From the IMG/VR virus record IMGVR_UViG_2690316131_000024: a DNA stretch of 32,435 nucleotides, one strand, 5' to 3'. Under the pieces are notes generated by a model. That model saw only the letters and a list, made by a program, of their open reading frames with translations. It was not told where the DNA came from and did no database searches. The position numbers and the translations under genes were made by a program. Shown here in pieces: positions 6,663 to 28,979 of the stretch. The stretch is from a virus. Lineage: Duplodnaviria; Heunggongvirae; Uroviricota; Caudoviricetes. Within the stretch, counting starts at the first letter, position 1. Every line of letters begins with the position of its first letter.

Positions 6663-7262
6663 CTATTTGTCCCGGTTGGCTAAGGGATGACACAATTTAT
6701 TCTTTGTCGCTGATGAGGGAAATTTTTTATAGAGCGTGGACAGGCCAATATCAAAAATCAGCGCCACACGTTGACGAGATTCCCCCGCAGCCAGCAACCG
6801 TCCGACCTGCTCCCACTCACTCGCGGTGAGTTTCGGACGTCTGCCACCAATACGACCTTTGGCTCTGGCCGCTTCCAGTCCGGCGCGTGTCCGCTCGACA
6901 ATGAGTTCTCGCTCCATTTCAGCCAGGGCACCCATCACATGAAAGAAAAAACGCCCCATCGGCGTGCTGGTATCAATAGCATCCGTCAGACTGCGAAAAT
7001 TAACGCCGCGTTCGCGCAGTTCCTCAACCAGAATGACCAGATGCCGCATACTACGCCCCAGCCTGTCCAGCTTCCAGACTACCAGAGTGTCACCTGCTGA
7101 TAATGTTCTGAGCAGTTTTTTCAGTCCCGGTCTGTCGGACTTCGTGCCGCTGATTTTATCCTCAAAAATCCGCTCGCATCCTGCGCACTCCAGCGCGTTA
7201 CGCTGCAATTCCGTGTTCTGGTCATTTGTTGACACGCGTACATAGCCAATAAGCATGAGCAT
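6663..7262 (-). CDS. Serine DNA invertase (Gin/Cin/Pin/Hin family), copy 1
   Basis: N-terminus MLIGYVRVSTNDQNT with catalytic Ser motif, ...GRIGGRRPKL and a C-terminal HTH (ALIFDIGLSTLYKKF) typical of Hin-family invertases. First 193 aa identical to copy 2; reads 6 codons past the repeat boundary. True start may be the Met two codons in (7256). Confidence 0.88.
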   Translation of the reverse strand: MLMLIGYVRVSTNDQNTELQRNALECAGCERIFEDKISGTKSDRPGLKKLLRTLSAGDTLVVWKLDRLGRSMRHLVILVEELRERGVNFRSLTDAIDTSTPMGRFFFHVMGALAEMERELIVERTRAGLEAARAKGRIGGRRPKLTASEWEQVGRLLAAGESRQRVALIFDIGLSTLYKKFPSSATKNKLCHPLANRDK

Positions 7263-7330
7263 CCCCCTGAATAAAAACCGGAGATGATGCCAGTTGCCCG
7301 TTATCTCTGCATTTTCATAAACGTTGGTTT
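6683..7330. repeat. 648-bp direct repeat, copy 1 (invertase gene plus crossover site)
   Basis: Offset 1358 bp to 8041..8688; both boundary sequences were compared by eye, and the ORF translations on both strands inside the two copies are identical. Confidence 0.85.
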
Positions 7331-7337
7331 AAGAGCA
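7312..7337 (+). other. cix/gix/hix-like crossover site (site 2)
   Basis: TCATAAACG-TT-GGTTTAAGA; identity to the H-embedded site begins exactly at TTGGTTT, centred on the TT dinucleotide at 7324..7325. Confidence 0.7.
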
Positions 7338-7634
7338 AGCGGGCAGTACACCGATAATTTGTTATTTACAGGTCCTGATGGTCTTAAGATTCAGGTGTTT
7401 CGCCGGACGCTCGCAAATTTGACTACTGTCGGTGTAGTAAATTCTGTGCCAGTGACTTTCCCTGTCCCGTTCCCTGTTAATTGCTGGGGCGTTTTTTCTA
7501 CCAAATTAACATGGGTTCAGATAACTAACTCATGCGAGTGGGTAAGTAATACAGGATTTACCGCTCAGGTCATGATGAATATTGCTGTAAATACAAACAC
7601 CTCAGACGCTATGTTTTTAGCTATAGGATATTAA
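7324..7634 (+). CDS. Silent tail-fibre C-terminal cassette V1' (duplicate of the currently expressed H C-terminus)
   Basis: Translation LRASGQYTDNLLFTGPDGL...AMFLAIGY is identical to the last ~100 aa of H (10200..10510, minus strand). It has no N-terminal constant region and is only expressible after inversion. Confidence 0.8.
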
Positions 7635-7635
7635 T

Positions 7636-8040
7636 ATGAATCATTTTGTGTTCAGTCCATCTGAGTCCCGTTTTTATGCCATCGAGTGGCAGGCTGATTA
7701 TGTTGATAATAATTGTTGGCCACATGATGCCATTAACGTTAGTGACAGCATTTATTATGAGTTTTCCGGCACTCCCCCTACAGGTAAGCAACTTATAACT
7801 TTAAATAACATGCCAGCATGGGGTGATATTCCTCCACCTACACGAGAAGAATTAATTGTCGCTGCTGATGTGGAGAAGCAAAAAAGAATAGATTTAGCCA
7901 ATGATTACATGAACGGTAAGCAATGGCCTGGTAAAGCAGCTATTGGTCGTCTGAAAGGTGAGGAACTGGCACAATATAATTTGTGGCTGGATTATCTGGA
8001 CGCACTGGAGCTGGTCGATACCGCCAGTGCGCCAGATATT
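7636..8040 (+). pseudogene. Truncated duplicate of tail-fibre assembly gene tfa1 (tfa1'), fused by read-through into invertase repeat copy 2
   Basis: First 135 aa identical to tfa1 (9758..10198). Identity ends at ...ASAPDI at the repeat boundary; the last 11 aa of tfa1 are replaced by repeat-derived read-through up to 8187. Confidence 0.75.
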
Positions 8041-8620
8041 AGGGATGACACAATTTATTCTTTGTCGCTGATGAGGGAAATTTTTTATAGAGCGTGGACA
8101 GGCCAATATCAAAAATCAGCGCCACACGTTGACGAGATTCCCCCGCAGCCAGCAACCGTCCGACCTGCTCCCACTCACTCGCGGTGAGTTTCGGACGTCT
8201 GCCACCAATACGACCTTTGGCTCTGGCCGCTTCCAGTCCGGCGCGTGTCCGCTCGACAATGAGTTCTCGCTCCATTTCAGCCAGGGCACCCATCACATGA
8301 AAGAAAAAACGCCCCATCGGCGTGCTGGTATCAATAGCATCCGTCAGACTGCGAAAATTAACGCCGCGTTCGCGCAGTTCCTCAACCAGAATGACCAGAT
8401 GCCGCATACTACGCCCCAGCCTGTCCAGCTTCCAGACTACCAGAGTGTCACCTGCTGATAATGTTCTGAGCAGTTTTTTCAGTCCCGGTCTGTCGGACTT
8501 CGTGCCGCTGATTTTATCCTCAAAAATCCGCTCGCATCCTGCGCACTCCAGCGCGTTACGCTGCAATTCCGTGTTCTGGTCATTTGTTGACACGCGTACA
8601 TAGCCAATAAGCATGAGCAT
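8039..8620 (-). CDS. Serine DNA invertase (Gin/Cin/Pin/Hin family), copy 2
   Basis: 193 aa, identical to copy 1 over its whole length; its stop codon spans the repeat boundary. Confidence 0.88.
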   Translation of the reverse strand: MLMLIGYVRVSTNDQNTELQRNALECAGCERIFEDKISGTKSDRPGLKKLLRTLSAGDTLVVWKLDRLGRSMRHLVILVEELRERGVNFRSLTDAIDTSTPMGRFFFHVMGALAEMERELIVERTRAGLEAARAKGRIGGRRPKLTASEWEQVGRLLAAGESRQRVALIFDIGLSTLYKKFPSSATKNKLCHP

Positions 8621-8688
8621 CCCCCTGAATAAAAACCGGAGATGATGCCAGTTGCCCGTTATCTCTGCATTTTCATAAACGTTGGTTT
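8041..8688. repeat. 648-bp direct repeat, copy 2 (invertase gene plus crossover site)
   Basis: See copy 1; the repeat ends at TTGGTTT, after which V1' (aagagc...) and V2 (gggaga...) diverge. Confidence 0.85.
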
Positions 8689-8695
8689 GGGAGAA
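8670..8695 (+). other. cix/gix/hix-like crossover site (site 3)
   Basis: TCATAAACG-TT-GGTTTGGGA; same left half as site 2, right half belongs to V2. Confidence 0.7.
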
Positions 8696-9184
8696 GGCTC
8701 TGCATTACCGGTTGGGGTGCCTGTTCCGTGGCCTTCAGCCACTCCGCCAACAGGCTGGCTGAAATGCAACGGTGCCGCTTTTTCTGCTGAAGAATACCCG
8801 GAACTGGCAAAGGCTTATCCGACAAATAAATTGCCTGATTTACGTGGTGAGTTTATTCGTGGCTGGGATGACGGGCGTGGTATTGATGCTGTACGTGCCT
8901 TGCTAAGTCTTCAGAATGGAGGAGTGGAATCACACACCCACCAAGGGCAGCTCTTCAGAGTTAGTGATTATCGTACAAAAGAAATACCAGCATCAGAAGT
9001 TATGGGAAGAGGATATATTGCAAGCCTGACGCCGGGTGCTGATAGCCCACTTGATTTTGATGATTATTCTGTATCTTCTAATCCAAATGGATATTTTGTC
9101 GGGAATCAGAGAACAACAGCATATGGGATAAATGAAACCCGTCCACGGAATATTGCATTTAACTATATCGTGAGGGCTGCATAA
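8684..9184 (+). CDS. Alternative tail-fibre C-terminal cassette V2 (receptor-binding segment)
   Basis: In frame with the crossover site; translation GEGSALPVGVPVPWPS...GEFIRGWDDGRGID...NETRPRNIAFNYIVRAA is a typical P2/Mu-type fibre C-terminus. No start of its own; expressed only when joined to H by inversion. Confidence 0.8.
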   Translation, partial: GLGEGSALPVGVPVPWPSATPPTGWLKCNGAAFSAEEYPELAKAYPTNKLPDLRGEFIRGWDDGRGIDAVRALLSLQNGGVESHTHQGQLFRVSDYRTKEIPASEVMGRGYIASLTPGADSPLDFDDYSVSSNPNGYFVGNQRTTAYGINETRPRNIAFNYIVRAA

Positions 9185-9786
9185 TGGATAACGCTGTATT
9201 AAATAGCGAGTTTATTGCTACAAAGGCGGGGAATATTACCGTCTATAACTATGATGGCGAAACACGGGAATATATTTCCACATCAACTGAATATCTTGCC
9301 GTTGGTGTCGGTATCCCTGCATATTCCTGTTTAGATGCCCCTGTCACATACAAAGCTGGTTATGCAATCTGCCGATCTGTAGATTTTAACTCATGGGAAT
9401 ATGTGCCAGACCATCGCGGTGAAATCGTCTTTAGCACCGAAACAGGAGAATCAAAAGAAATCACAGTTCCGGGTGATTACCCTGATAATACAACCACTAT
9501 CGCCCCGTTAACGCCATACGATAAATGGGATGGTGAGAAATGGGTGACGGATACCGAAGCACAGCATAGCGCCGCAGTAGATGCAGCAGAAGCACAGCGC
9601 CAGTCACTGATTGATACTGTAATGGCTTCAATCAGTCTGATTCAGCTGAAATTGCAGGCCGGACGTAAACTGACGCAGGCAGAAACAACCAGCCTTAACA
9701 CTGTGCTGGATTACATTGACGCGGTGACAGCAACAGATACGAGCACCGCGCCGGATGTCATCTGGCCTGAACTGCCGGAGGCGTAG
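9184..9786 (+). CDS. Tail-fibre assembly chaperone for V2 (tfa2), 200 aa
   Basis: Immediately follows V2 with stop/start overlap; conserved Tfa C-terminal region; converges with tfa1 with 3' overlap. Confidence 0.8.
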   Translation: MDNAVLNSEFIATKAGNITVYNYDGETREYISTSTEYLAVGVGIPAYSCLDAPVTYKAGYAICRSVDFNSWEYVPDHRGEIVFSTETGESKEITVPGDYPDNTTTIAPLTPYDKWDGEKWVTDTEAQHSAAVDAAEAQRQSLIDTVMASISLIQLKLQAGRKLTQAETTSLNTVLDYIDAVTATDTSTAPDVIWPELPEA

Positions 9787-10198
9787 GCCATTCAATATCT
9801 GGCGCACTGGCGGTATCGACCAGCTCCAGTGCGTCCAGATAATCCAGCCACAAATTATATTGTGCCAGTTCCTCACCTTTCAGACGACCAATAGCTGCTT
9901 TACCAGGCCATTGCTTACCGTTCATGTAATCATTGGCTAAATCTATTCTTTTTTGCTTCTCCACATCAGCAGCGACAATTAATTCTTCTCGTGTAGGTGG
10001 AGGAATATCACCCCATGCTGGCATGTTATTTAAAGTTATAAGTTGCTTACCTGTAGGGGGAGTGCCGGAAAACTCATAATAAATGCTGTCACTAACGTTA
10101 ATGGCATCATGTGGCCAACAATTATTATCAACATAATCAGCCTGCCACTCGATGGCATAAAAACGGGACTCAGATGGACTGAACACAAAATGATTCAT
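9758..10198 (-). CDS. G: Tail-fibre assembly chaperone (gpG-like, tfa1), 146 aa, currently in the expressed orientation
   Basis: Directly downstream of H with start/stop overlap; position equivalent to P2 G. Confidence 0.85.
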   Translation of the reverse strand: MNHFVFSPSESRFYAIEWQADYVDNNCWPHDAINVSDSIYYEFSGTPPTGKQLITLNNMPAWGDIPPPTREELIVAADVEKQKRIDLANDYMNGKQWPGKAAIGRLKGEELAQYNLWLDYLDALELVDTASAPDIEWPTPPAVQAR

Positions 10199-10199
10199 A

Positions 10200-11336
10200 T
10201 TAATATCCTATAGCTAAAAACATAGCGTCTGAGGTGTTTGTATTTACAGCAATATTCATCATGACCTGAGCGGTAAATCCTGTATTACTTACCCACTCGC
10301 ATGAGTTAGTTATCTGAACCCATGTTAATTTGGTAGAAAAAACGCCCCAGCAATTAACAGGGAACGGGACAGGGAAAGTCACTGGCACAGAATTTACTAC
10401 ACCGACAGTAGTCAAATTTGCGAGCGTCCGGCGAAACACCTGAATCTTAAGACCATCAGGACCTGTAAATAACAAATTATCGGTGTACTGCCCGCTTGCT
10501 CTTAAACCAAGGTATGTGAGAAGACCAGCTACATCCTTTCCACTCAAATTAGTCAGCGTCTCATCCAGTGGCTGCTTACCTGACAGCGCATTGTTAATGG
10601 TGGTGCTGAATTTCGGGTCATTGTTAATGGCCGCGGCAATTTCTTTCAGTGTGTCCAGCGTGTCTGGCGCGCCGTTAATCAGAGCGGTAATAGCGGCCTG
10701 AACAAACTCAGTGGTCGCAATCCGCGTGGTGTTATTTCCTGCGGCAGGCGTCGGCGCTTTTGGTTCTCCGGTAAATGTCGGATTATGTTTCTGCGCATAC
10801 TGGGTATGAGGATCCTGTGCGACAATGTGGTTTCTCATCTGGTCATCCACATACAGCTTTAATTCCAGGACTTCATCATCCACGTATTTACGGGTCGCCA
10901 GTACCACCGACGGGTCGATTTTCAGCGTAATAGCTTCGGTATTCGTGACAACCAGAATCATGCGGATAGTCTGGGTACGACCACTGCCTTCCTGTAACTG
11001 CGGTTTGTACGTTTCCGGGCAGTTCGCCACCGCAATGAGTACGCCTTCATCATCATAAAGCCCAATCTCACGGATCCAGAATCCGCCCTCGTTCTCAGGG
11101 ATGATTTGCTCCGCAATAATCTGGCTCTGGTTGTTCGGGTCAACACTCAGAAGATTCAGCGGCGCGATGCGTTTCTGGTTAATCAGTTTTGTCTGTGCCG
11201 GGTCTGGTGTCGGCAAGACACCATTCGCATCACCAACGGCCATTTGCGTCAGATTCAGCTTACTGCCGAGCATCGTCGCGTTAGCCAGCCGTGCTGCGCC
11301 CTGATTAGTCAGAATGGCGTAGTATTTCACTGTCAT
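10200..11336 (-). CDS. H: Tail fibre protein H (constant N-terminus plus invertible C-terminal segment V1), 378 aa
   Basis: N-terminus MTVKYYAILTNQGAARLANA...MAVGDANG resembles the P2 H / Mu S N-terminus; the C-terminal ~100 aa lie beyond the embedded crossover site at ~10510. Confidence 0.88.
   Translation of the reverse strand: MTVKYYAILTNQGAARLANATMLGSKLNLTQMAVGDANGVLPTPDPAQTKLINQKRIAPLNLLSVDPNNQSQIIAEQIIPENEGGFWIREIGLYDDEGVLIAVANCPETYKPQLQEGSGRTQTIRMILVVTNTEAITLKIDPSVVLATRKYVDDEVLELKLYVDDQMRNHIVAQDPHTQYAQKHNPTFTGEPKAPTPAAGNNTTRIATTEFVQAAITALINGAPDTLDTLKEIAAAINNDPKFSTTINNALSGKQPLDETLTNLSGKDVAGLLTYLGLRASGQYTDNLLFTGPDGLKIQVFRRTLANLTTVGVVNSVPVTFPVPFPVNCWGVFSTKLTWVQITNSCEWVSNTGFTAQVMMNIAVNTNTSDAMFLAIGY
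10497..10522 (-). other. cix/gix/hix-like crossover site embedded in H (site 1), inverted relative to sites 2 and 3
   Basis: On the minus strand TCACATACC-TT-GGTTTAAGA; right half identical to site 2, left half from the H constant region, i.e. the hybrid sites expected after past inversion. Confidence 0.7.
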
Positions 11337-20263: not shown

Positions 20264-22036
20264 ATGACCATCACCACAGACACCACTCTTTTACACGACC
20301 CGCGTCGTCAGGCGGCGCTGCTGTACTGGCAGGGGTTTTCCGTGCCGCAGATTGCCGCCATGTTGCAGATGAAACGCCCGACGGTGCAGAGCTGGAAACA
20401 GCGCGACGGCTGGGACAGCGTTGCCCCCATCAGCCGTGTCGAAATGAGTCTGGAAGCGCGGCTGACCCAGCTCATCATCAAACCGCAGAAAACCGGCGGT
20501 GACTTCAAGGAAATTGACCTGCTCGGACGCCAGATTGAACGACTGGCACGGGTCAACCGTTACAGTCAGACCGGCAACGAGGCAGACCTTAATCCGAACG
20601 TCGCTAACCGCAACAAAGGCGGGCGTCGCAAACCGAAAAAGAATTTTTTCAGTGACGAGGCCATCGAAAAGCTGGAGCAGATTTTCTTTGAGCAGTCTTT
20701 CGAATATCAGTTGCACTGGTATCGCGCCGGGCTTGAGCACCGCATCCGCGATATCCTGAAATCCCGCCAGATTGGCGCGACGTTTTATTTTTCCCGCGAG
20801 GCGCTGCTGCGCGCCCTGAAAACCGGTCATAACCAGATTTTTCTGTCGGCCAGTAAAACGCAGGCGTATGTGTTCCGCGAATACATCATCGCCTTTGCCC
20901 GGCTGGTTGACGTTGACCTGACCGGTGACCCAATCGTCCTGGGCAATAACGGCGCAAAACTGATTTTTCTCGGCACCAACTCCAACACCGCGCAGAGCCA
21001 TAACGGCGACCTGTACGTCGACGAGATTTTCTGGATCCCGAATTTTCAGGTGCTCCGTAAGGTGGCATCAGGTATGGCCTCACAGAGTCACCTGCGCTCG
21101 ACCTATTTCTCCACCCCGTCCACGCTGGCGCACGACGCCTACCCGTTCTGGTCCGGTGAACTGTTTAACCGGGGACGCGCCAGCGCCGCCGAACGCGTGG
21201 AAATCGACGTCAGTCATAACGCCCTTGCCGGTGGGCTTCTCTGTGCGGACGGCCAGTGGCGGCAGATTGTCACCATTGAGGACGCCCTGAAAGGCGGCTG
21301 CACATTGTTCGACATTGAGCAGCTTAAACGCGAAAACAGCGCCGACGATTTTAAAAACCTGTTCATGTGTGAATTTGTTGACGACAAGGCATCGGTGTTC
21401 CCGTTCGAGGAGCTGCAACGCTGCATGGTCGACACGCTGGAAGAATGGGAAGACTATGCGCCGTTTGCCGCAAATCCGTTCGGCTCACGTCCGGTATGGA
21501 TTGGTTACGACCCGTCACACCGTGGCGACAGCGCCGGATGCGTGGTACTGGCACCGCCGGTGGTGGCCGGTGGCAAATTCAGAATACTTGAGCGTCACCA
21601 GTGGAAAGGCATGGACTTTGCCACCCAGGCGGAATCCATCCGCAAACTCACCGAAAAATACAACGTCGAATACATCGGAATTGATGCCACCGGCCTCGGT
21701 GTCGGCGTGTTCCAGCTCGTGCGCTCGTTCTATCCCGCCGCGCGCGATATCCGCTACACGCCGGAAATGAAAACCGCAATGGTGCTCAAGGCAAAAGACG
21801 TTATCCGCCGTGGCTGTCTGGAATATGACGTCAGCGCCACCGACATCACCAGCTCGTTTATGGCTATCCGCAAGACCATGACCAGCAGCGGACGCAGTGC
21901 CACCTATGAGGCCAGCCGCAGCGAGGAAGCCAGCCACGCCGACCTCGCCTGGGCGACCATGCACGCCCTGTTAAATGAGCCACTCACCGCCGGTATCAGC
22001 ACCCCGCTGACATCCACCATTCTGGAGTTTTACTGA
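20264..22036 (+). CDS. P: Terminase ATPase (large) subunit P, ~590 aa
   Basis: Start taken at MTITTDTTLL, preceded by GAGGT 7 nt upstream; gives the P2 gpP length; stop overlaps the Q start (ATGA). Confidence 0.88.
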   Translation: MTITTDTTLLHDPRRQAALLYWQGFSVPQIAAMLQMKRPTVQSWKQRDGWDSVAPISRVEMSLEARLTQLIIKPQKTGGDFKEIDLLGRQIERLARVNRYSQTGNEADLNPNVANRNKGGRRKPKKNFFSDEAIEKLEQIFFEQSFEYQLHWYRAGLEHRIRDILKSRQIGATFYFSREALLRALKTGHNQIFLSASKTQAYVFREYIIAFARLVDVDLTGDPIVLGNNGAKLIFLGTNSNTAQSHNGDLYVDEIFWIPNFQVLRKVASGMASQSHLRSTYFSTPSTLAHDAYPFWSGELFNRGRASAAERVEIDVSHNALAGGLLCADGQWRQIVTIEDALKGGCTLFDIEQLKRENSADDFKNLFMCEFVDDKASVFPFEELQRCMVDTLEEWEDYAPFAANPFGSRPVWIGYDPSHRGDSAGCVVLAPPVVAGGKFRILERHQWKGMDFATQAESIRKLTEKYNVEYIGIDATGLGVGVFQLVRSFYPAARDIRYTPEMKTAMVLKAKDVIRRGCLEYDVSATDITSSFMAIRKTMTSSGRSATYEASRSEEASHADLAWATMHALLNEPLTAGISTPLTSTILEFY

Positions 22037-23070
22037 TGAGCAAGAAAAAAGGGAAAACACCGCAACCTGCGGCAAAAAAAATGACCGCCAGCGCCCCGAA
22101 AATGGAAGCATTCACCTTTGGCGAGCCGGTGCCGGTACTCGACCGCCGTGACATTCTGGATTACGTCGAGTGCATCAGTAACGGCAGATGGTATGAGCCA
22201 CCAGTCAGCTTTACCGGTCTGGCAAAAAGCCTGCGTGCTGCCGTGCATCACAGCTCACCGATTTACGTCAAACGTAATATTCTGGCTTCAACGTTTATCC
22301 CGCACCCGTGGCTTTCCCAGCAGGATTTCAGCCGCTTTGTGCTGGATTTTCTGGTGTTCGGTAATGCGTTTCTGGAAAAGCGTTACAGCCCCACCGGTAA
22401 GGTCATCAGACTGGAAACCTCACCGGCAAAATATACCCGCCGTGGCGTGGAGGAGGATGTTTACTGGTGGGTGCCGTCCTTCAACGAGCCGACAGCCTTC
22501 GCGCCCGGTTCCGTGTTTCACCTGCTGGAGCCCGATATTAATCAGGAGCTGTACGGCCTGCCGGAATATCTCAGCGCCCTTAACTCTGCCTGGCTGAATG
22601 AGTCGGCCACGCTGTTCCGCCGCAAGTATTACGAAAACGGCGCACATGCCGGATACATCATGTACGTTACCGATGCCGTGCAGGATCGCAACGATATCGA
22701 AATGCTTCGCGAAAACATGGTTAAGTCGAAAGGCCGCAATAACTTTAAAAATCTGTTTCTCTATGCCCCGCAGGGGAAAGCCGACGGCATTAAAATTATC
22801 CCCCTCAGTGAAGTGGCAACGAAGGACGATTTTTTTAATATCAAAAAAGCCAGCGCCGCTGACCTGCTGGACGCGCACCGCATCCCCTTTCAGTTGATGG
22901 GCGGCAAGCCGGAGAACGTCGGGTCGCTGGGTGATATTGAGAAAGTGGCAAAGGTCTTTGTCCGCAATGAGCTTATCCCGCTACAGGACAGGATCCGCGA
23001 GATAAACGGCTGGCTCGGTCAGGAGGTCATCCGCTTTAAAAACTACTCACTGGACACTGACAACGGCTGA
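22036..23070 (+). CDS. Q: Portal (capsid) protein Q, 344 aa
   Basis: 344-aa ORF, same length and position as P2 gpQ, last gene before cos. Confidence 0.9.
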   Translation: MSKKKGKTPQPAAKKMTASAPKMEAFTFGEPVPVLDRRDILDYVECISNGRWYEPPVSFTGLAKSLRAAVHHSSPIYVKRNILASTFIPHPWLSQQDFSRFVLDFLVFGNAFLEKRYSPTGKVIRLETSPAKYTRRGVEEDVYWWVPSFNEPTAFAPGSVFHLLEPDINQELYGLPEYLSALNSAWLNESATLFRRKYYENGAHAGYIMYVTDAVQDRNDIEMLRENMVKSKGRNNFKNLFLYAPQGKADGIKIIPLSEVATKDDFFNIKKASAADLLDAHRIPFQLMGGKPENVGSLGDIEKVAKVFVRNELIPLQDRIREINGWLGQEVIRFKNYSLDTDNG

Positions 23071-23239: not shown

Positions 23240-23258
23240 GTGCTTTCCCCGCCTCGCC
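23240..23258 (-). other. cos: cos site (19-nt cohesive-end sequence, P2 type)
   Basis: gtgctttccccgcctcgcc is the reverse complement of GGCGAGGCGGGGAAAGCAC, which I recall as the P2 cohesive end; located just beyond Q as in P2. Confidence 0.8.
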
Positions 23259-23501
23259 CGCCCGCTTCATGGGGCGGTTTTAATGCAGTTGCACAGCCAT
23301 GTCAAAGCCATGTCAACACTAGCAGTATGTAAAAAGAGCAGATATAAGAAACAAATGCAGTTTCATGCAAAAAGCGACACACATCATGTCATGAAACAAA
23401 GCCGCTAATGAACACTTGCTTTGGTTATCTTAAGGTTTTATCTTCAGCCTAACCTATTGATTGCATGAAACTAAAATGAACTCTCAGCAAGGAACGACTA
23501 T

Positions 23502-25460
23502 ATGTCAGATTTCGAAATTAAAATTGATTTGAATGTGCTAAATCACCTAGGGATGAGTCTCTATTCCAATACTCCCGCGGTACTAACTGAGATTATATCA
23601 AATGCATGGGATGCAGATGCTCAAAATGTAGAAATTACACTTGATGTTGAGAAAGGAGAGGTCATCATTAAAGATGATGGTCATGGCATGTCTAAAGATG
23701 ACATTATTAATAAGTTCCTAAAAGTCGGTTATGCTCGCAGGGAACATGGAAGAGCCAAAAGCGATCATCTAAAACGTCAAGTTATGGGCAGAAAAGGTAT
23801 TGGTAAGCTTGCCATGTTTTCACTTGCCAATAAAATCCAAGTTTATTCGTACAAAAAGGGGGAACAGCCTCAGGCCTTTGAGGTAGATGTCAAAGATTTA
23901 CAGCAAAGTATCAAAGAATCAAAAAACTATATTGCTGACTCCCTTGAAATACCCGAAAATCTTGCTTACGGCACTACAATTAAATTATTTGAACTAAAAA
24001 AAGCCATTGATAGGACTCAAACTTACCTCAGAAAGCGAATAGCTCGTCGATTTAGCATTATTGGCCCCAACCATAACTTTACAGTTAAAATTAATGGGAC
24101 CGATATTACACCGGCAGATAGAGATTTCCTTTCAGATCTCGAGTTCATTTGGGAATTTGGCGAATCCGACCCTGAAAGGATAAAATCCTGCACAAACATC
24201 ACACAAAAAAACATATTACCAAATACTATTACCTTTGAAGGAAAAGATGTAAAAGTTAGTGGGTACATTGGCAGTGTAGTTAAGCCATCACAGTTAAAGA
24301 AAGACCCTGAAATATCTAACAACAGCATTACTGTAATCTCTCACGGACGTGTTTTTGAGGAGGACATATTATTAGAATTTGGAAGTGCTAAAGTATTCAC
24401 CAATTATCTGGTCGGTGAAATAGTCGCCGATTTTCTAGATGATAACGAAAAGCCTGATATGGCAACATCTTCTCGTCAAAAACTACAACAGAATGATCCA
24501 AGATACCCTGTACTTAAAGGTTTTCTGGAAAGAACGCTACAACTAATCGATAAAGATTGGGATAAATGGAGACGCGAAAAAGGAGTAAATGAAGTTAAAA
24601 GCAATACTCCAATAGTAAGTGAATGGCTGAATTCTCTCAAAAAACATGAGAGAGAAAGTGCCGAAAAGTTAATTGGACGAGTAAACACATTCCGTTTTTC
24701 TGGTAATGAGGAAGAACAAAAAGCAGCAAGAAAAACCGTATTAAAAAATACGGTATTAGCCTTTGAAAGACTTAGAATTCAAGACAACCTTGATGCATTA
24801 GATAAAATAAGCAACCTTCAATCAGAAAATTTTAAAGATGTATTTGCATCTGTCAATGACATTGAAGCAAGCATGTTTTATGAAATTACTTCGCAACGCC
24901 TTAAAGTAATTGAAAAATTCCAAAAAATAACTGATGAAAATCAGCTTGAAAGAGCTGTACAAATGTATTTATATGATCATTTATGGTTATTGGATCCTTC
25001 ATGGGAAAGAGTCACAGGCACATCTGTTATGGAGCAAACATTGACCAAGGAACTAAAACAGATAAACCCTGATGCTGCTAGCGGTGCTCGTATTGATATC
25101 GCTTTCAAAACCGTTTCTGGCAAGCATGTAATTATTGAGATGAAACGACCTAAAGTGCACCCAGATATAATGAACCTAGTCGCACAAGGTAATAAATATG
25201 TACAGGCAACGACACAATGGTTCTCCAATAACCCTAAAAATTGCCCAGGTGGAAATATACCGCATATAGAAGTAATATTCCTGGTTGGCTCTGGATATTT
25301 ACAAGAGAACCAACACTTTATAAATATGCAATTACTTTCTATCAATGGAAAAATATTGACATATAATGACCTAATCGTGCAATCAAAACAAGCCTATGCT
25401 GAATATCAAGACAAAAAGAATGATGCAGCTAGAATTATGAAAATAGTTGAGGGAATCTAA
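23502..25460 (+). CDS. GHKL-family ATPase (MutL/MORC/Hsp90-like Bergerat fold) with C-terminal PD-(D/E)xK-like nuclease motif, 652 aa; candidate defence/restriction protein
   Basis: N-box EIISNAWDA, G1 box IKDDGHGM, G2 box GRKGIGKLAMFS and YGTTIKLFEL in canonical order within the first ~170 aa. Near the C-terminus ARIDIAFKTVSGKHVIIEMKRPK fits D-x(n)-E-x-K. AT-rich gene with an AAGGAA RBS 7 nt before the ATG. Family placement is from motifs only. Confidence 0.7.
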   Translation: MSDFEIKIDLNVLNHLGMSLYSNTPAVLTEIISNAWDADAQNVEITLDVEKGEVIIKDDGHGMSKDDIINKFLKVGYARREHGRAKSDHLKRQVMGRKGIGKLAMFSLANKIQVYSYKKGEQPQAFEVDVKDLQQSIKESKNYIADSLEIPENLAYGTTIKLFELKKAIDRTQTYLRKRIARRFSIIGPNHNFTVKINGTDITPADRDFLSDLEFIWEFGESDPERIKSCTNITQKNILPNTITFEGKDVKVSGYIGSVVKPSQLKKDPEISNNSITVISHGRVFEEDILLEFGSAKVFTNYLVGEIVADFLDDNEKPDMATSSRQKLQQNDPRYPVLKGFLERTLQLIDKDWDKWRREKGVNEVKSNTPIVSEWLNSLKKHERESAEKLIGRVNTFRFSGNEEEQKAARKTVLKNTVLAFERLRIQDNLDALDKISNLQSENFKDVFASVNDIEASMFYEITSQRLKVIEKFQKITDENQLERAVQMYLYDHLWLLDPSWERVTGTSVMEQTLTKELKQINPDAASGARIDIAFKTVSGKHVIIEMKRPKVHPDIMNLVAQGNKYVQATTQWFSNNPKNCPGGNIPHIEVIFLVGSGYLQENQHFINMQLLSINGKILTYNDLIVQSKQAYAEYQDKKNDAARIMKIVEGI

Positions 25461-25466
25461 TTATAC

Positions 25467-25490
25467 CCCCCCTGTTTTTTGACAGGGGGG
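25467..25490. terminator. GC-rich hairpin between the convergent ATPase and methyltransferase genes (candidate bidirectional terminator)
   Basis: cccccctg-ttttttga-cagggggg, a perfect 8-bp stem between the two stop codons (25460 and 25503). Confidence 0.55.
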
Positions 25491-25502
25491 ATGACATAAG
25501 TT

Positions 25503-26552
25503 TTAAATATTCATTTCTGACAAATGTTTTAAAATAGTTTCACCTACGACCTCACCAAGCCTAACAGGAACAGCATTACCTATTAAACGCGCAACTGTTC
25601 TCATTTCAATTTTTACATCATCAGGCCAAAACTCATACTTTTCTGGGAATGACTGTAATAGCGCAGCCTCTCTTAAACTTAATGCTCTATTTTGGACAGG
25701 GTGCCCAAAGCGTCCATTCCCATATCCAATACATTGAGTTGTAATTGTCGGTCCAAGTTTATCCCAACACATTCTCCCATATACAGCAGTATATGTAGAA
25801 CCACTTTCTTTTGTATGACATTTTGCTCTTAGCTCTTCTGGCCAATCACGCCATGTTCCACCAGGTTTTGATGCCATTATTCTTTTTATATTAATATCAG
25901 ATAATGATGCAGAGCGATGTAGTTTATCTCCAGCGTGAACAGCACCGGCACTAATTTCAGGAAGATTACCGATTATATCTCGCACCGTTTTATAATCATT
26001 CTTCTCATGAGTTGGTGGAATTATTTCTATTTCTCCATATTTTGATGCCAATAACACTAATCTTGAACGACTTTGTGCCATTCCATAGTCTGGACAAAAC
26101 ACCACCCCATACCAAACAAAATAGCCATCATTTTTAAGAGACTTAATGAAGTCCTTAAAAACCTTATGATTCACCACTCGGGGAACGTTTTCCATTGTAA
26201 TAATATCTGGCTTTGCAAATTTAATTTGCTTAGCAAAGCTATAAAGCAAAGACCATCTTTTATCTTTTGAACGTACTACCCCTAATTTAGCACTATTGGT
26301 ATAGCTTGAAAAAGGTTGGCATGGGGCACAACCAGCCAAAACTCGAACCTTCGCTCCTTCGAAATATTTAACTAATTCGCCGTCCTCAATGTCTGTAACA
26401 CTTTTCTGGACAAAGAGTGATTTATTATTTGTCTCATAGGCAAATCGACAGGCTGCATCTATATCATAACCTGCAACTACATTAAGCCCCGACTTCTGAA
26501 GACCGTGAGTCAAGCCACCCGCGCCACAGAATAAATCAACAACCTTAATCAA
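25503..26552 (-). CDS. DNA (cytosine-5)-methyltransferase, ~349 aa
   Basis: All core m5C-MTase motifs in order: DLFCGAGG (I), GCAPCQPFS (IV), ENV (VI), QSRSRLV (VIII), GNAVPV (X). Start proposed at TTG 26550..26552 preceded by AGAAGGAGG (6-nt spacer); the 383-aa ORF-track version extends into the promoter region. Confidence 0.85.
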   Translation of the reverse strand: MIKVVDLFCGAGGLTHGLQKSGLNVVAGYDIDAACRFAYETNNKSLFVQKSVTDIEDGELVKYFEGAKVRVLAGCAPCQPFSSYTNSAKLGVVRSKDKRWSLLYSFAKQIKFAKPDIITMENVPRVVNHKVFKDFIKSLKNDGYFVWYGVVFCPDYGMAQSRSRLVLLASKYGEIEIIPPTHEKNDYKTVRDIIGNLPEISAGAVHAGDKLHRSASLSDINIKRIMASKPGGTWRDWPEELRAKCHTKESGSTYTAVYGRMCWDKLGPTITTQCIGYGNGRFGHPVQNRALSLREAALLQSFPEKYEFWPDDVKIEMRTVARLIGNAVPVRLGEVVGETILKHLSEMNI

Positions 26553-26572
26553 GATAAACCTCCTTCTAATGC

Positions 26573-26649
26573 TGTGGGGATTGTAGCATTGTTCTTTCTC
26601 ATCATCGATGTTTACTTGATGCTTGATTTGTGAATACAAAATCAAGCAT
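26573..26649 (-). promoter_or_regulatory. Candidate promoter and operator-like palindrome upstream of the methyltransferase
   Basis: Minus-strand extended -10 TGcTACAAT (+ coords 26580..26588) about 28 nt upstream of the TTG start. An 11-bp inverted repeat atgcttgattt-N9-aaatcaagcat at 26619..26649 abuts a TTGACA hexamer on the minus strand. Confidence 0.4.
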
Positions 26650-26663
26650 GTCAATCATTATTG

Positions 26664-28979
26664 TTAGTTTGTTTCAAATCCCGCCCAACCATCAGAAATC
26701 GGATATGAAAACGTTTTCCCATCATAATTTACGGTCGCGCCACGCGCCAGCGCCTCAAGCTCCCATCGCTGCGGCCTGATACCGTTCTGAGCAAGGTCAA
26801 CGCGGATACGGGTAATTTGCATTCTTTCCGACCGGGTCAGTCTGGCCGATGGTGCAATTTCATGTGGTTTTAACGGGCTTCCGTTTCTTTGCTGACGACT
26901 TGGCGTTCTCCGACCGTGTTTTAATGCACCTCTGAGCGCCCTCACGACCTCCGGGTCACTCCATTCGATAACACCGTCATCAACCAGATTAAGCACTGCT
27001 GCGGCGTGCTCAGAAGGTGTGGGAGCCGGTAACGAAGTATCACCACCGGTGAGTTTTCCACAGTTATTGACAGGACTCCGAGGCGCGGCGATGCCGCTTT
27101 TTAAAGTCAAAGGCTCAACGACCGGAACTTTCGGCACAATGCGCCAGTCCGTCGTTCTGGTGATATGAATATGACGCGCGCCGAGATGCGGCGCGTAAAT
27201 GCCGACCACTCTCTCGACTTCTTCCTCGTACTCGTTAACGTCATCCGACAGACTACGGGCGACCCTGACAGTCTGACAATCGCGCGGGACATTTGCCCCG
27301 CCCTGCGCGCTGATATACAGCGCAAAATCACCACTGTCTGCGGCGGCGCGTGCAGCCTCGACGCGCTCGTCAAACTCATCAGCAATGCTGACGCCGCGAG
27401 GCAATTTGCGTAGTTCACGGTAAGCCCCCATTGTCGGCAGGCCAACCGTTTTAAATTGCGGAATGCGCCACGTTGACGCCCATGCGGTAACAGCCGCTGC
27501 AGTGTCTTTCAGCGGCCTGCCGGTGTCGTTATCGAGCTGACCATCCAGTGCATAGCCGTCGATGTTTTTTGAAATGTATTTCGCGATATATCCCGCAGCA
27601 CCGCCCCGGTTAAGGTGTTTTGCCTGAAAACGGTTTCGCGCGGCTCCTCTTTCGTCGCCATCCTCTTTGAGCGCATAGCGACGCATGATTTCGATAATCT
27701 GGTTACGCTGGCGTGGATGACAAAAAAGCATCATATGCCAGTGCGGCGTTCCGTCGTGGTGTGGCTCGACGACTCGCAAACCGTAGACCTGTAAATCATT
27801 ATCCTTGAATGCCGTGCGCATCAGGCTCCAGATACGGCAGAGATAACGCTGCGCATCCTTTGGATTAAATGCCTCATCGTTCCAGCCGTGATTAAGCTGA
27901 ACGGTTTTACTTTCGCCTTTTCCGACCTGACGTGTCGGGTGATACTTTGACGGCGCGGTCAGCGTGATAAACATCCCCACATCACCCTCTGCGGCGGCGT
28001 AACGCTCAATACCGGCAATGGTGTTCATCAGCTCCATCCGGCGAATTTCAGGATTAGAAATACTGCCCATCACCTTACTGATAAGGTCGATGCGCTCGCC
28101 GGTTTCCCTGTTTTCAAGGTCACACGATTTAAGAAATTCCAGATTTGCCTGGCGGCGCGCACGCACATCACGAATGGCGTGTTTACTGGCATAAGGAGAA
28201 CGGTCTTTATTGACCTCCCCGACAGCTATCAGTAACGCCTCATGCCAGCGCATACGCTGGCCTTTAAGCTGATGAGTCCACCACTCATCGTTAAACAGGC
28301 GGGCAATGGCAGAATATGCCTGCCTCGTGGTCATCTGTCCTTTACGGTATTTTTTCCAGTAGAGCGGGGAAATATTGAAAGCACGTGCAGCGCCAGCAAC
28401 ATGACCATACAGGTGAGCCTGCGCCTCATCCGTAAACAGCGATTCTTTTTCACCATGCGCATCAACCCATGCATCGCAGAGTTCCTCATACATCATGAAA
28501 AGCTGCGATGAGATACGGGCGGCAAACTTTTTCAGCTCCTTGTCATTCATTCCCGGCAGGCGCGCATAGTGGTCACGCTCTGCCAGAAACAGCAACGACG
28601 CGTCGGTGTTCATTTCATGGCGCTGATTCACACGCTCAATGCGCGGCCATAAACGACGCTGAAAAGTAGATGTGAGGAAATAAAACCCGTGCACCGGGCT
28701 TTTATTGCGCCGGATGTAGTCATAGCGTGAAGTAAACAGCGAGCGCAAAAAATAAGGCAGGCGGTTAATCGTGGATAAAACACCTTGCACCTGACGCATC
28801 TCGTCACGTGTAAGAGGTCTTTCGCGCCCGACAGCCTCGCGTGGCGCGTTCCATGCATAAGCACCGGTAAACGCCTTACCGGTGCCTGCGGTAAATGCTG
28901 ACGGAGGGACAAAACGCCCGGAGGCTTTAACGGCCATATGAGCCAAAAGCCTCTGAACAACGCTTGCTGAGTTGCTCAA
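26664..28979 (-). CDS. A: Replication initiation protein A (rolling-circle nicking endonuclease), 771 aa
   Basis: 771-aa ORF (P2 gpA is slightly shorter; true start may be the internal Met at MAVKASGRF) with a central HxH and paired-Tyr region (GAAGYIAKYISKNIDGY), in the P2 gene A position. Confidence 0.88.
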   Translation of the reverse strand: MSNSASVVQRLLAHMAVKASGRFVPPSAFTAGTGKAFTGAYAWNAPREAVGRERPLTRDEMRQVQGVLSTINRLPYFLRSLFTSRYDYIRRNKSPVHGFYFLTSTFQRRLWPRIERVNQRHEMNTDASLLFLAERDHYARLPGMNDKELKKFAARISSQLFMMYEELCDAWVDAHGEKESLFTDEAQAHLYGHVAGAARAFNISPLYWKKYRKGQMTTRQAYSAIARLFNDEWWTHQLKGQRMRWHEALLIAVGEVNKDRSPYASKHAIRDVRARRQANLEFLKSCDLENRETGERIDLISKVMGSISNPEIRRMELMNTIAGIERYAAAEGDVGMFITLTAPSKYHPTRQVGKGESKTVQLNHGWNDEAFNPKDAQRYLCRIWSLMRTAFKDNDLQVYGLRVVEPHHDGTPHWHMMLFCHPRQRNQIIEIMRRYALKEDGDERGAARNRFQAKHLNRGGAAGYIAKYISKNIDGYALDGQLDNDTGRPLKDTAAAVTAWASTWRIPQFKTVGLPTMGAYRELRKLPRGVSIADEFDERVEAARAAADSGDFALYISAQGGANVPRDCQTVRVARSLSDDVNEYEEEVERVVGIYAPHLGARHIHITRTTDWRIVPKVPVVEPLTLKSGIAAPRSPVNNCGKLTGGDTSLPAPTPSEHAAAVLNLVDDGVIEWSDPEVVRALRGALKHGRRTPSRQQRNGSPLKPHEIAPSARLTRSERMQITRIRVDLAQNGIRPQRWELEALARGATVNYDGKTFSYPISDGWAGFETN

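Follow-up and report, generated by a model that had tools for sequence, protein, structure and literature searches.

Here we report that a 652-residue protein (hereafter R), encoded in the cos-adjacent hotspot of a P2-like temperate phage, is very probably the restriction subunit of an m5C-based restriction–modification (R-M) module of two genes. The window analysed is a 32,435-nucleotide (nt) stretch of viral DNA (IMG/VR record IMGVR_UViG_2690316131_000024). The reading draws on the folds and invariant residues of R, its family membership, its linkage to a methyltransferase gene (hereafter M) and its location in the hotspot, and the pair is most likely anti-phage cargo of the P2-like prophage. 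The R gene, its architecture and its status as hotspot cargo are already known, and the gene belongs to a named family (BbrUII/HgiDII, equivalent to paraMORC3 and GHKL-type Shedu). The features of the window are as follows.

22036–23070, plus strand: P2 Q gene for the portal protein, flanking the hotspot on the left, annotated as a phage portal in identical regions (NZ_CP006632, PV340563)
23240–23258, minus strand: P2-type cos cohesive-end 19-mer GGCGAGGCGGGGAAAGCAC (exact match; 0.01 expected by chance)
23295–26663, no strand: variable low-GC (35–43%) cargo cassette in the Q–cos–A hotspot (GC profile, homology break)
23502–25460, plus strand: R gene, a GHKL-ATPase/PD-(D/E)xK nuclease fusion of 652 residues
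23502–24011, plus strand: GHKL (Bergerat-fold) ATPase domain of R, residues 1–170 (Pfam, invariant motifs, fold matches)
24012–24500, plus strand: transducer (middle, S5-like) α/β domain, residues ~171–333
24501–25001, plus strand: helical linker, residues ~334–500 (secondary structure, pLDDT)
25002–25457, plus strand: PD-(D/E)xK nuclease domain (Shedu/DUF4263-like, RecB-type), residues ~501–652
25503–26552, minus strand: M gene, C5 DNA cytosine methyltransferase of 349 residues (Pfam DNA_methylase, PF00145, E = 1e-55)
26664–28979, minus strand: P2 A gene for the replication endonuclease, flanking the hotspot on the right, annotated as replication endonuclease/GpA

Domain architecture of R

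The R gene is one unbroken open reading frame with an AAGGA ribosome-binding site 8–9 nt 5′ of its ATG, and its product is identical to RefSeq WP_001279022.1. An earlier note on this DNA had described a single frame with a GHKL head and a PD-(D/E)xK tail, and the 652-residue frame does contain all five of the motifs quoted there. EIISNAWDA (residues 30–38), DDGHGM (58–63), GRKGIGKLAMFS (96–107) and YGTTIKLFEL (156–165) follow one another in the N-box, G1, G2 and GT order given in that note, whereas the D...ExK nuclease motif IDIAFKTVSGKHVIIEMKRPK, which had been put near residue 560, lies at residues 531–551 (nucleotides 25092–25154). Judged from the sequence, these motifs are far above chance level: Pfam HATPase_c_3 matches residues 26–149 with E = 2e-25, and the key residues are invariant in 103 homologues with identities down to 44%. 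The GHKL motifs comprise E30 and N34 (motif I), D58xGxG62 (II), G96xxGxG101 (III) and G157-T158 (IV), with GRKGIGKL, inside the HATPase_c_3 match, as the G2 box. The invariant residues are E30, N34, D58, G60, G62, G96, G99, G101 and T158 in the ATPase, and D532 (nucleotides 25095–25097), E546 and K548 (E546-x-K548, 25137–25145), and Q562 and Y566 (Q562xxxY566, 25185–25199) in the nuclease.

Structure comparisons, which rest on monomer models, gave MORC3, SMCHD1 and MORC2 as the top matches of the N-terminal module, with MutL also among the matches, and residues ~170–330 superpose on the middle domains of MORC, MutL and Hsp90. The ~350 residues between the two terminal domains had been described as mostly charged and probably helical; only residues ~334–500 are helical, whereas residues ~170–330 form the mixed α/β transducer. 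No Pfam family matches the helical linker, and the model confidence (pLDDT) drops around residues 440–470; the linker may serve as an arm or clamp that joins the ATPase to the nuclease. The transducer domain, the family name, the tie to the adjoining methyltransferase and the P2 cargo hotspot do not appear in the earlier note.

For the C-terminal domain, a non-nuclease fold had been named as the outcome that would speak against a nuclease, and fold comparison returned a PD-(D/E)xK fold, with NucS/EndoMS, a mismatch endonuclease, among its nearest folds. Single-sequence Pfam scans of the C-terminal 202 residues and the middle 253 residues yielded nothing informative, and the Pfam SduA_C model reaches 17.3 bits on the C terminus of R itself, against a threshold of 27 bits. 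The same model matches 18 of 21 C termini of the family, and one orthologue scores over the gathering cutoff; the Shedu likeness of R emerged only through its orthologues, the family set and structure. A sequence search of the PDB with the R protein gave matches restricted to the GHKL domain, and a C-terminal profile gave a weak match to E. coli Shedu (E = 0.25) in which the D..ExK residues are aligned; neither these protein searches nor those with the nuclease-domain profile found a solved structure of the R family in the PDB, only distant GHKL and Shedu relatives. A single-sequence search with the nuclease domain retrieved ~410 clusters, nearly all of the same 640–700-residue architecture.

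The best matches of the N-terminal module (MORC3, SMCHD1 and MORC2) are chromatin compaction factors, and R could in principle be a MORC-like DNA-compacting or silencing ATPase that cleaves nothing and uses its nuclease domain solely for DNA binding or oligomerization. We find this the least credible of the explanations considered, given that D532, E546, K548, Q562 and Y566 are all invariant in the 103 sequences and that the nuclease lysine is needed for defence in the related VcSduA (PMC12137116). R also differs from MutL, as it lacks the MutL C-terminal dimerization/endonuclease domain and carries instead a fused nuclease of the PD-(D/E)xK type; the best of the NCBIfam MutL models, whose cutoffs range from 180 to 937 bits, scores 25.5 bits on residues 26–69 only, against its cutoff of 180.

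Family membership and the methyltransferase partner

R scores 751.4 bits against NCBIfam NF050001, "BbrUII/HgiDII family restriction enzyme", for which the curated equivalog cutoff is 550, and its residues 4–651 align to positions 1–658 of the 659-position profile. The RefSeq name of the protein is likewise BbrUII/HgiDII family restriction enzyme, PADLOC REase_II matches it with E = 2e-91 and phrog_6203 with E = 1e-283. In phage PhiR44_1, the identical gene is annotated "ParaMORC3" and stands beside "Dcm". The prototypes to which the NF050001 profile likens R are R.HgiDII from Herpetosiphon and R.BbrUII from Bifidobacterium breve; like them, R is paired with an m5C methyltransferase. The prototypes are chromosomal systems of Chloroflexi and Actinobacteria, whereas R and M are carried as cargo by a P2-like prophage of E. 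coli. R shares with R.HgiDII an N-terminal GHKL domain, which Orlowski and Bujnicki noted in 2008; the C-terminal domain of that enzyme was then 'unassigned to any known fold', whereas that of R can now be placed in the Shedu/NucS branch of the PD-(D/E)xK enzymes.

In the same year, a purely computational study defined paraMORC3 proteins as a GHKL domain with an S5/transducer and a C-terminal restriction-endonuclease-fold domain, the latter having E-D-ExK motifs and RecB-like similarity, and found them prevalent in proteobacteria, within R-M gene neighbourhoods that also encode cytosine methylases (Iyer, Abhiman and Aravind 2008, PMC2292703). All of these features are present in R, which has intact GHKL motifs, an S5-fold transducer and a restriction-endonuclease-fold C terminus, and its neighbourhood is of the same type, with a DNA methylase and, in relative L054, Vsr. 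The features stated in that paper place R among the paraMORC3 proteins, and we found no difference in kind. BceSIV/CglI, ATP-dependent R-M systems cited together with paraMORCs, were considered as further GHKL users and rejected, as they have a DEAD-type helicase and a PLD nuclease.

The M gene lies convergent to R, with the two stop codons 42 nt apart, and also matches PADLOC MTase_II and DrmMII. Its start is the TTG at 26552 according to RefSeq WP_000598783.1, and the open frame reaches 26654. Among 34 full-length relatives of R, 33 have an adjoining C5 methyltransferase gene (orthologous in 32, divergent in the 33rd), and the linkage spans many phyla, in either orientation and with changed gene order. 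Such linkage across distant taxa despite rearrangement is a pattern typical of an obligate toxin–protector pair.

The fold neighbours NucS/EndoMS and MutL, together with the Vsr gene beside relative L054 and the Vsr genes that Iyer et al. described in MORC and paraMORC neighbourhoods (PMC2292703), allow a different kind of partnership, in which R would be either a type IV-like nuclease that depends on modification or a nicking enzyme linked to mismatches or deamination, working with the methyltransferase on m5C- or T:G-containing DNA, after the logic of MutL–MutH or Vsr. This we regard as highly improbable: such a nuclease would be self-toxic, as its target would be what the obligate neighbouring enzyme makes; only one of the two neighbourhoods examined for flanking genes has Vsr; and catalogues list the family prototypes as type II enzymes.

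Across the family, the target-recognition region of the methyltransferase is 54% conserved and the catalytic core 47–54%, which argues for one specificity family-wide. GTCGAC is the reported methylation site of M.HgiDII (PMC5867850), and by analogy with the family prototypes the module is probably specific for this sequence; the tie between an R-type fold and GTCGAC cleavage comes from database naming. M.BbrUII is described as an N6-adenine enzyme in one Bifidobacterium paper and as a 5mC enzyme in another, and given this conflict we used the HgiDII statement only; other Bifidobacterium papers do not give the BbrUII recognition site. A gain in transformation from M.BbrUII pre-methylation alone was not reported for B. 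breve, and BbrUII restriction may therefore be weak. Avoidance of GTCGAC was not seen in the window, which retains three sites, an uninformative count.

Cargo of the P2 Q–cos–A hotspot

The cassette occupies the slot of old/tin in P2. In 2,160 other E. coli genomes, homology to the window ends at positions ~23293–23306 and restarts in gene A, and in other prophages the same slot holds HNH, DUF3850, HEPN or retron Ec48. Variable cargo between the portal gene gpQ/cos and the replication gene gpA defines the P2 defence hotspot of Rousset et al. 2022 (PMC9122126), whose supplementary table contains the accessions of both the R and M proteins as hotspot cargo. Among complete E. coli genomes, 30 of 5,426 carry the gene pair. 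Like P2 Old, R lies between cos/Q and A and has the same presumed role in phage exclusion (PMC9122126). P2 Old consists of an ABC ATPase and a TOPRIM nuclease, and the earlier decision not to read the gene as Old agrees with the Pfam, NCBIfam and PADLOC lists for R, which give no ABC or TOPRIM signal down to E = 1. A promoter scan of the cassette gave nine promoter-like sites against 10.7 in shuffled sequences, which is no excess; terminator-like sites numbered seven against 3.3 ± 1.8, from which we draw no regulatory conclusion.

Relation to Shedu and proposed working

The domain order of R, from GHKL through an Hsp90/MORC-like middle to a DUF4263 PD-(D/E)xK domain, is that of VcSduA and the GHKL-type Shedu proteins ('type I-D'). 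In VcSduA, a GHKL–DUF4263 protein, the E27A (ATPase) and K557A (nuclease) mutations each abolish anti-phage defence (Adams et al. 2025, PMC12137116), and the counterparts of these residues in R are E30 and K548. VcSduA defends E. coli without any methyltransferase, protecting cultures at all MOIs tested (PMC12137116), so at least some relatives of R are not simple site-specific type II enzymes. R might itself be a stand-alone immune nuclease of this kind, with an ATPase that senses an infection cue and a nuclease that ignores host methylation, the adjoining methyltransferase being independent or merely co-travelling. The Shedu-like C-terminal fold and Pfam signal agree with such an explanation, as do the sufficiency of VcSduA by itself and the report by Gu et al. 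(10.1101/2023.08.10.552793), which lists GHKL-Shedu proteins and finds Shedu genes often within R-M loci.

We nevertheless consider a stand-alone role unlikely. VcSduA is a single gene, whereas the R clade is almost always methyltransferase-linked, and this near-obligate genomic linkage, in 33 of 34 relatives from distant taxa, is at odds with the single-gene, partner-free defence that marks Shedu. Moreover, R passes the curated equivalog cutoff of a restriction-enzyme family, and its catalytic E-to-K spacing is 518 residues against 530 in VcSduA, which assigns the two proteins to different orthologue groups. The same difference in spacing (518 against 530 residues) led us to reject a Vibrio cholerae homologue, P0047 (61% identical), as the published VcSduA. 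P0047 is located in another P2-like prophage, beside a CI repressor gene.

For R as a restriction subunit, we infer its cleavage specificity, its block by methylation, its ATP dependence and its oligomeric state in the following scheme. M would methylate the DNA of the lysogen and its prophage at one short site, presumably GTCGAC, and R would attack unmarked incoming DNA through a Shedu/RecB-type active site formed by D532, E546, K548 and Q562. The MORC/MutL-type GHKL ATPase and transducer would dimerize upon ATP binding, and the ATPase dimer could then gate or position the nuclease on DNA in a clamp-like manner.

A sister clade retains both this ATPase module and this methyltransferase, with a putative HEPN (Rx4H) domain in place of the PD-(D/E)xK nuclease. 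We tentatively raise a wider reading, which we hold to be possible though doubtful, that R is not a conventional type IIP enzyme and that the conserved part of the system is the GHKL–transducer module plus the m5C methyltransferase, with an interchangeable effector. The MORC-like module and the methyltransferase may then read the methylation state of DNA and clamp it under ATP control. If so, the family would offer a prokaryotic model of how MORC ATPases link the methylation status of DNA to what is done to it, and in the HEPN clade an R-M-like sensor would drive an abortive effector directed at RNA.

As the gene pair is already catalogued as R-M cargo of P2-like prophages, the value of its annotation is small, and the remaining value is biochemical: what a MORC/MutL-type ATPase does within a restriction enzyme is a question flagged since 2008. 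The phage that carries the pair grows on E. coli C, which makes the system easy to handle for studies of nuclease control by a MORC-type ATPase in response to DNA methylation.

Architecture of the R protein

The R gene begins 8–9 nt downstream of a ribosome-binding site, AAGGA, and encodes a 652-residue protein that the earlier note read as a GHKL ATPase joined to a PD-(D/E)xK nuclease. All five motif strings on which that reading was based are present in the order described, with the nuclease motif, placed in the note near residue 560, lying about 30 residues earlier.

Features of the R gene and R protein
23502–25460, plus strand: R gene, 652 codons in one uninterrupted frame (ORF reading)
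Residues 1–170: Bergerat-fold ATPase domain (model and Foldseek)
Residues 30–38: motif EIISNAWDA
Residues 58–63: motif DDGHGM
Residues 96–107: motif GRKGIGKLAMFS
Residues 156–165: motif YGTTIKLFEL
Residues ~170–330: α/β transducer (S5-like) domain (model and Foldseek)
Residues ~334–500: helical stretch (model)
Residues 531–551: nuclease motif IDIAFKTVSGKHVIIEMKRPK

The Pfam model HATPase_c_3 matches residues 26–149 (E = 2e-25). In an AlphaFold2 model built from 103 homologues (mean pLDDT 80.7), approximately 400 columns align with the N and M domains of Hsp90-family proteins in Foldseek, and this alignment sets the limits of the ATPase, transducer and helical regions. The middle of the protein, previously described as charged helix, is thus helical only from about residue 334 to 500, and residues ~170–330 form the transducer domain. 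The separately modelled C-terminal region (residues 448–652; pLDDT 84, pTM 0.80) adopts an α-β-β-β-α-β arrangement, in which D532 is located on the second strand, E546-x-K548 on the third and Q562xxxY566 on the next helix. A non-nuclease fold, the outcome that would have counted against the earlier reading, was looked for in this model and was not found. Across the 103-sequence alignment, with identities down to 44%, E30, N34, D58, G60, G62, G96, G99, G101 and T158 are invariant in the GHKL part, as are E483, Q487, D498, E511, D532, E546, K548, Q562 and Y566 in the C-terminal part. The SduA_C model (PF14082, formerly DUF4263) matches 18 of 21 family C-termini and gives a sub-threshold match to the C-terminus of the R protein itself (E = 0.0056); a 68% identical orthologue (P0039) scores 28.1 bits against its gathering threshold of 27. 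The predicted fold, these matches and the invariant residues support the ATPase–nuclease reading, and a non-catalytic, MORC-like role for the protein is unlikely.

A known family of restriction enzymes

The R gene is an already known and annotated feature. Its product matches the NCBIfam equivalog NF050001, "BbrUII/HgiDII family restriction enzyme", end to end (residues 4–651 on profile positions 1–658 of 659), scoring 751 bits where the curated cutoff is 550, and the PADLOC type II REase model PDLC03419 at E = 2e-91; its full-length family in PHROGs is phrog_6203, with function given as unknown. In E. coli genomes, the identical RefSeq protein WP_001279022.1 bears the name "BbrUII/HgiDII family restriction enzyme" or "ATP-binding protein"; Escherichia phage PhiR44_1 (PV340563.1), which carries a 99.9% identical cassette, labels the R gene "ParaMORC3" and its neighbour "Dcm protein". 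ParaMORC3 proteins were described as GHKL, S5 and C-terminal RE-fold nuclease domains with E-D-ExK motifs, found in restriction–modification neighbourhoods with cytosine methylases, and ATP-driven DNA looping analogous to MutL was proposed for them (Iyer, Abhiman and Aravind 2008, PMC2292703). Shedu proteins also include members with GHKL-ATPase N-terminal domains and an Hsp90/MORC-like middle domain (Gu et al., 10.1101/2023.08.10.552793). One of these, VcSduA (GHKL-DUF4263), confers a defence against T1-like phages and vibriophage X29 that the E27A (ATPase) and K557A (nuclease) mutations abolish (Adams et al. 2025, PMC12137116). On the strength of these papers and annotations, the architecture is known computationally, in annotation pipelines and, in a relative, by experiment; what remains of value is confined to the biochemistry of GHKL-containing restriction enzymes.

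A phmmer search with the nuclease domain alone against 1.84 billion cluster representatives (E ≤ 0.001) retrieved 410 clusters. Since almost all matches long enough to be complete span 640–700 residues, with the domain at approximately 445–665, the nuclease subfamily is essentially confined to this architecture; many of the shorter matches are probably gene fragments. A 61% identical Vibrio cholerae homologue (P0047; L057:8001–9979) likewise belongs to a prophage, its contig also bearing Phage_GPA, Ogr_Delta and CI repressor genes. The homologue adjoins the CI repressor gene at the contig end rather than lying between Q and A. It was considered as the published VcSduA and rejected on its catalytic-residue spacing (518 versus 530 residues).

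Linkage to a cytosine methyltransferase

Sampling one genome per species gave 55 loci. An orthologous methyltransferase, in most cases 47–57% identical to M, the C5 methyltransferase of the window, directly adjoins 32 of the 34 loci with a whole-protein match, being located either upstream in the same orientation or on the downstream side and convergent. Of the other two, L054 combines Vsr with a C5 methylase that is more divergent, both within 2.5 kb, and L030 is the sole whole-protein locus at which no methyltransferase was found. Such persistence of the linkage across phyla, despite altered gene order, is expected of an obligate nuclease–protector pair. The target-recognition region of M (residues 168–291) is conserved (54%) like the catalytic core (47–54%), which favours one recognition sequence shared by the whole family. 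BbrII is an isoschizomer of SalI. GTCGAC is the reported methylation target of M.HgiDII (PMC5867850).

We consider it most likely that the R gene encodes the R subunit of an m5C-dependent restriction–modification module, a reading that draws on the folds, residues, family membership and methyltransferase linkage described here. M would mark the site, probably GTCGAC, and R would cleave incoming unmarked DNA through its PD-(D/E)xK site, methylation presumably blocking the cut. The MORC/MutL-type ATPase may dimerise upon ATP binding to form a DNA clamp, by which the nuclease would be licensed or positioned. The main rival, a stand-alone sensor nuclease resembling VcSduA, draws on the activity of VcSduA in E. 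coli without any methyltransferase, which indicates that the wider group are not all simple type II enzymes; given the near-obligate methyltransferase linkage in the window's clade and the catalytic-residue spacing of 518 residues here against 530 in VcSduA, we regard it as improbable. Modification-dependent or mismatch-directed cutting is likewise unlikely. In the full-length relative from Xenophilus sp. (L054), a gene for the Vsr very-short-patch repair endonuclease lies directly downstream (7096–7560), followed by the divergent methylase, in agreement with the methylase/Vsr/paraMORC neighbourhoods described in 2008.

The 21 further loci (L036–L053, L055, L056; for example, L037:4980–6701) match residues 4–360 only, the ATPase and transducer, at 33–37% identity, and come from Patescibacteria, Saccharibacteria, Bdellovibrionales, Ignavibacteria and other groups. 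The same orthologous methyltransferase, ~50% identical and with an equally conserved recognition region, is immediately upstream in 19; one locus carries it on the opposite strand at a distance of several kb downstream, and in another only its end is present on a short contig. The 17 ORFs read to their ends encode 550–580 residues. Four of the proteins, inspected by eye, have no D..ExK..QxxxY, and their C-termini read ...RNPxMHT or ...RDALMHT, an Rx4H motif; HEPN_Swt1 gave one weak match in the clade (E = 0.013), and paraMORC–HEPN fusions within restriction–modification loci were noted in 2013. These sequences suggest that one ATPase/methylase chassis bears interchangeable effector domains, HEPN-like in the members inspected. 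Because effectors swap on a constant chassis, the conserved methylation-sensing element could be the ATPase module instead of the nuclease domain, an idea we hold only tentatively.

The cassette in the P2 hotspot

R and M form a convergent pair within an island of 35–43% GC in a genome of ~55% GC.

The cassette and its flanks
22036–23070: P2-type portal gene Q, one flank
23240–23258: P2 cos 19-mer (exact match; 0.01 expected by chance)
25503–26552, minus strand: C5 cytosine DNA methyltransferase gene M (Pfam E = 1e-55; RefSeq start)
26664–28979: replication endonuclease gene A, other flank

The homology shared with 2,160 further E. coli genomes ends at ~23293–23306 and returns within A. The slot is the P2 hotspot, the site of old and tin in P2 (Rousset et al. 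2022, PMC9122126); in other prophages it holds HNH, DUF3850, DUF7380 or HEPN genes, or retron Ec48. Of 5,426 complete E. coli genomes, 30 carry the cassette in full. At 23295–23316 the 11-mer AGCCATGTCAA stands twice in tandem, exactly where homology to other P2-like prophages ends, at the backbone/cargo junction just past cos; the pair may be a scar left by recombination or may serve as a regulatory site.

Elsewhere in the window, the tail-fibre region (6683–10522) resembles an invertible switch of host range, in which a serine invertase gene, a tail-collar gene and genes for tail-fibre assembly are enclosed by a 729-nt inverted repeat (7312–8040 versus 9794–10522; 99% complementary). There are also two perfect, directly repeated copies of the entire invertase gene, each of ~640 nt (6683–7320 and 8041–8678), a duplication which could be real or an assembly artefact of the inverting segment. 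GATC occurs at 15 sites in 32,435 bases, against ~127 expected (naive length/256), and five of the 15 are inside the imported R gene; the P2-like backbone is thus strongly depleted of GATC.
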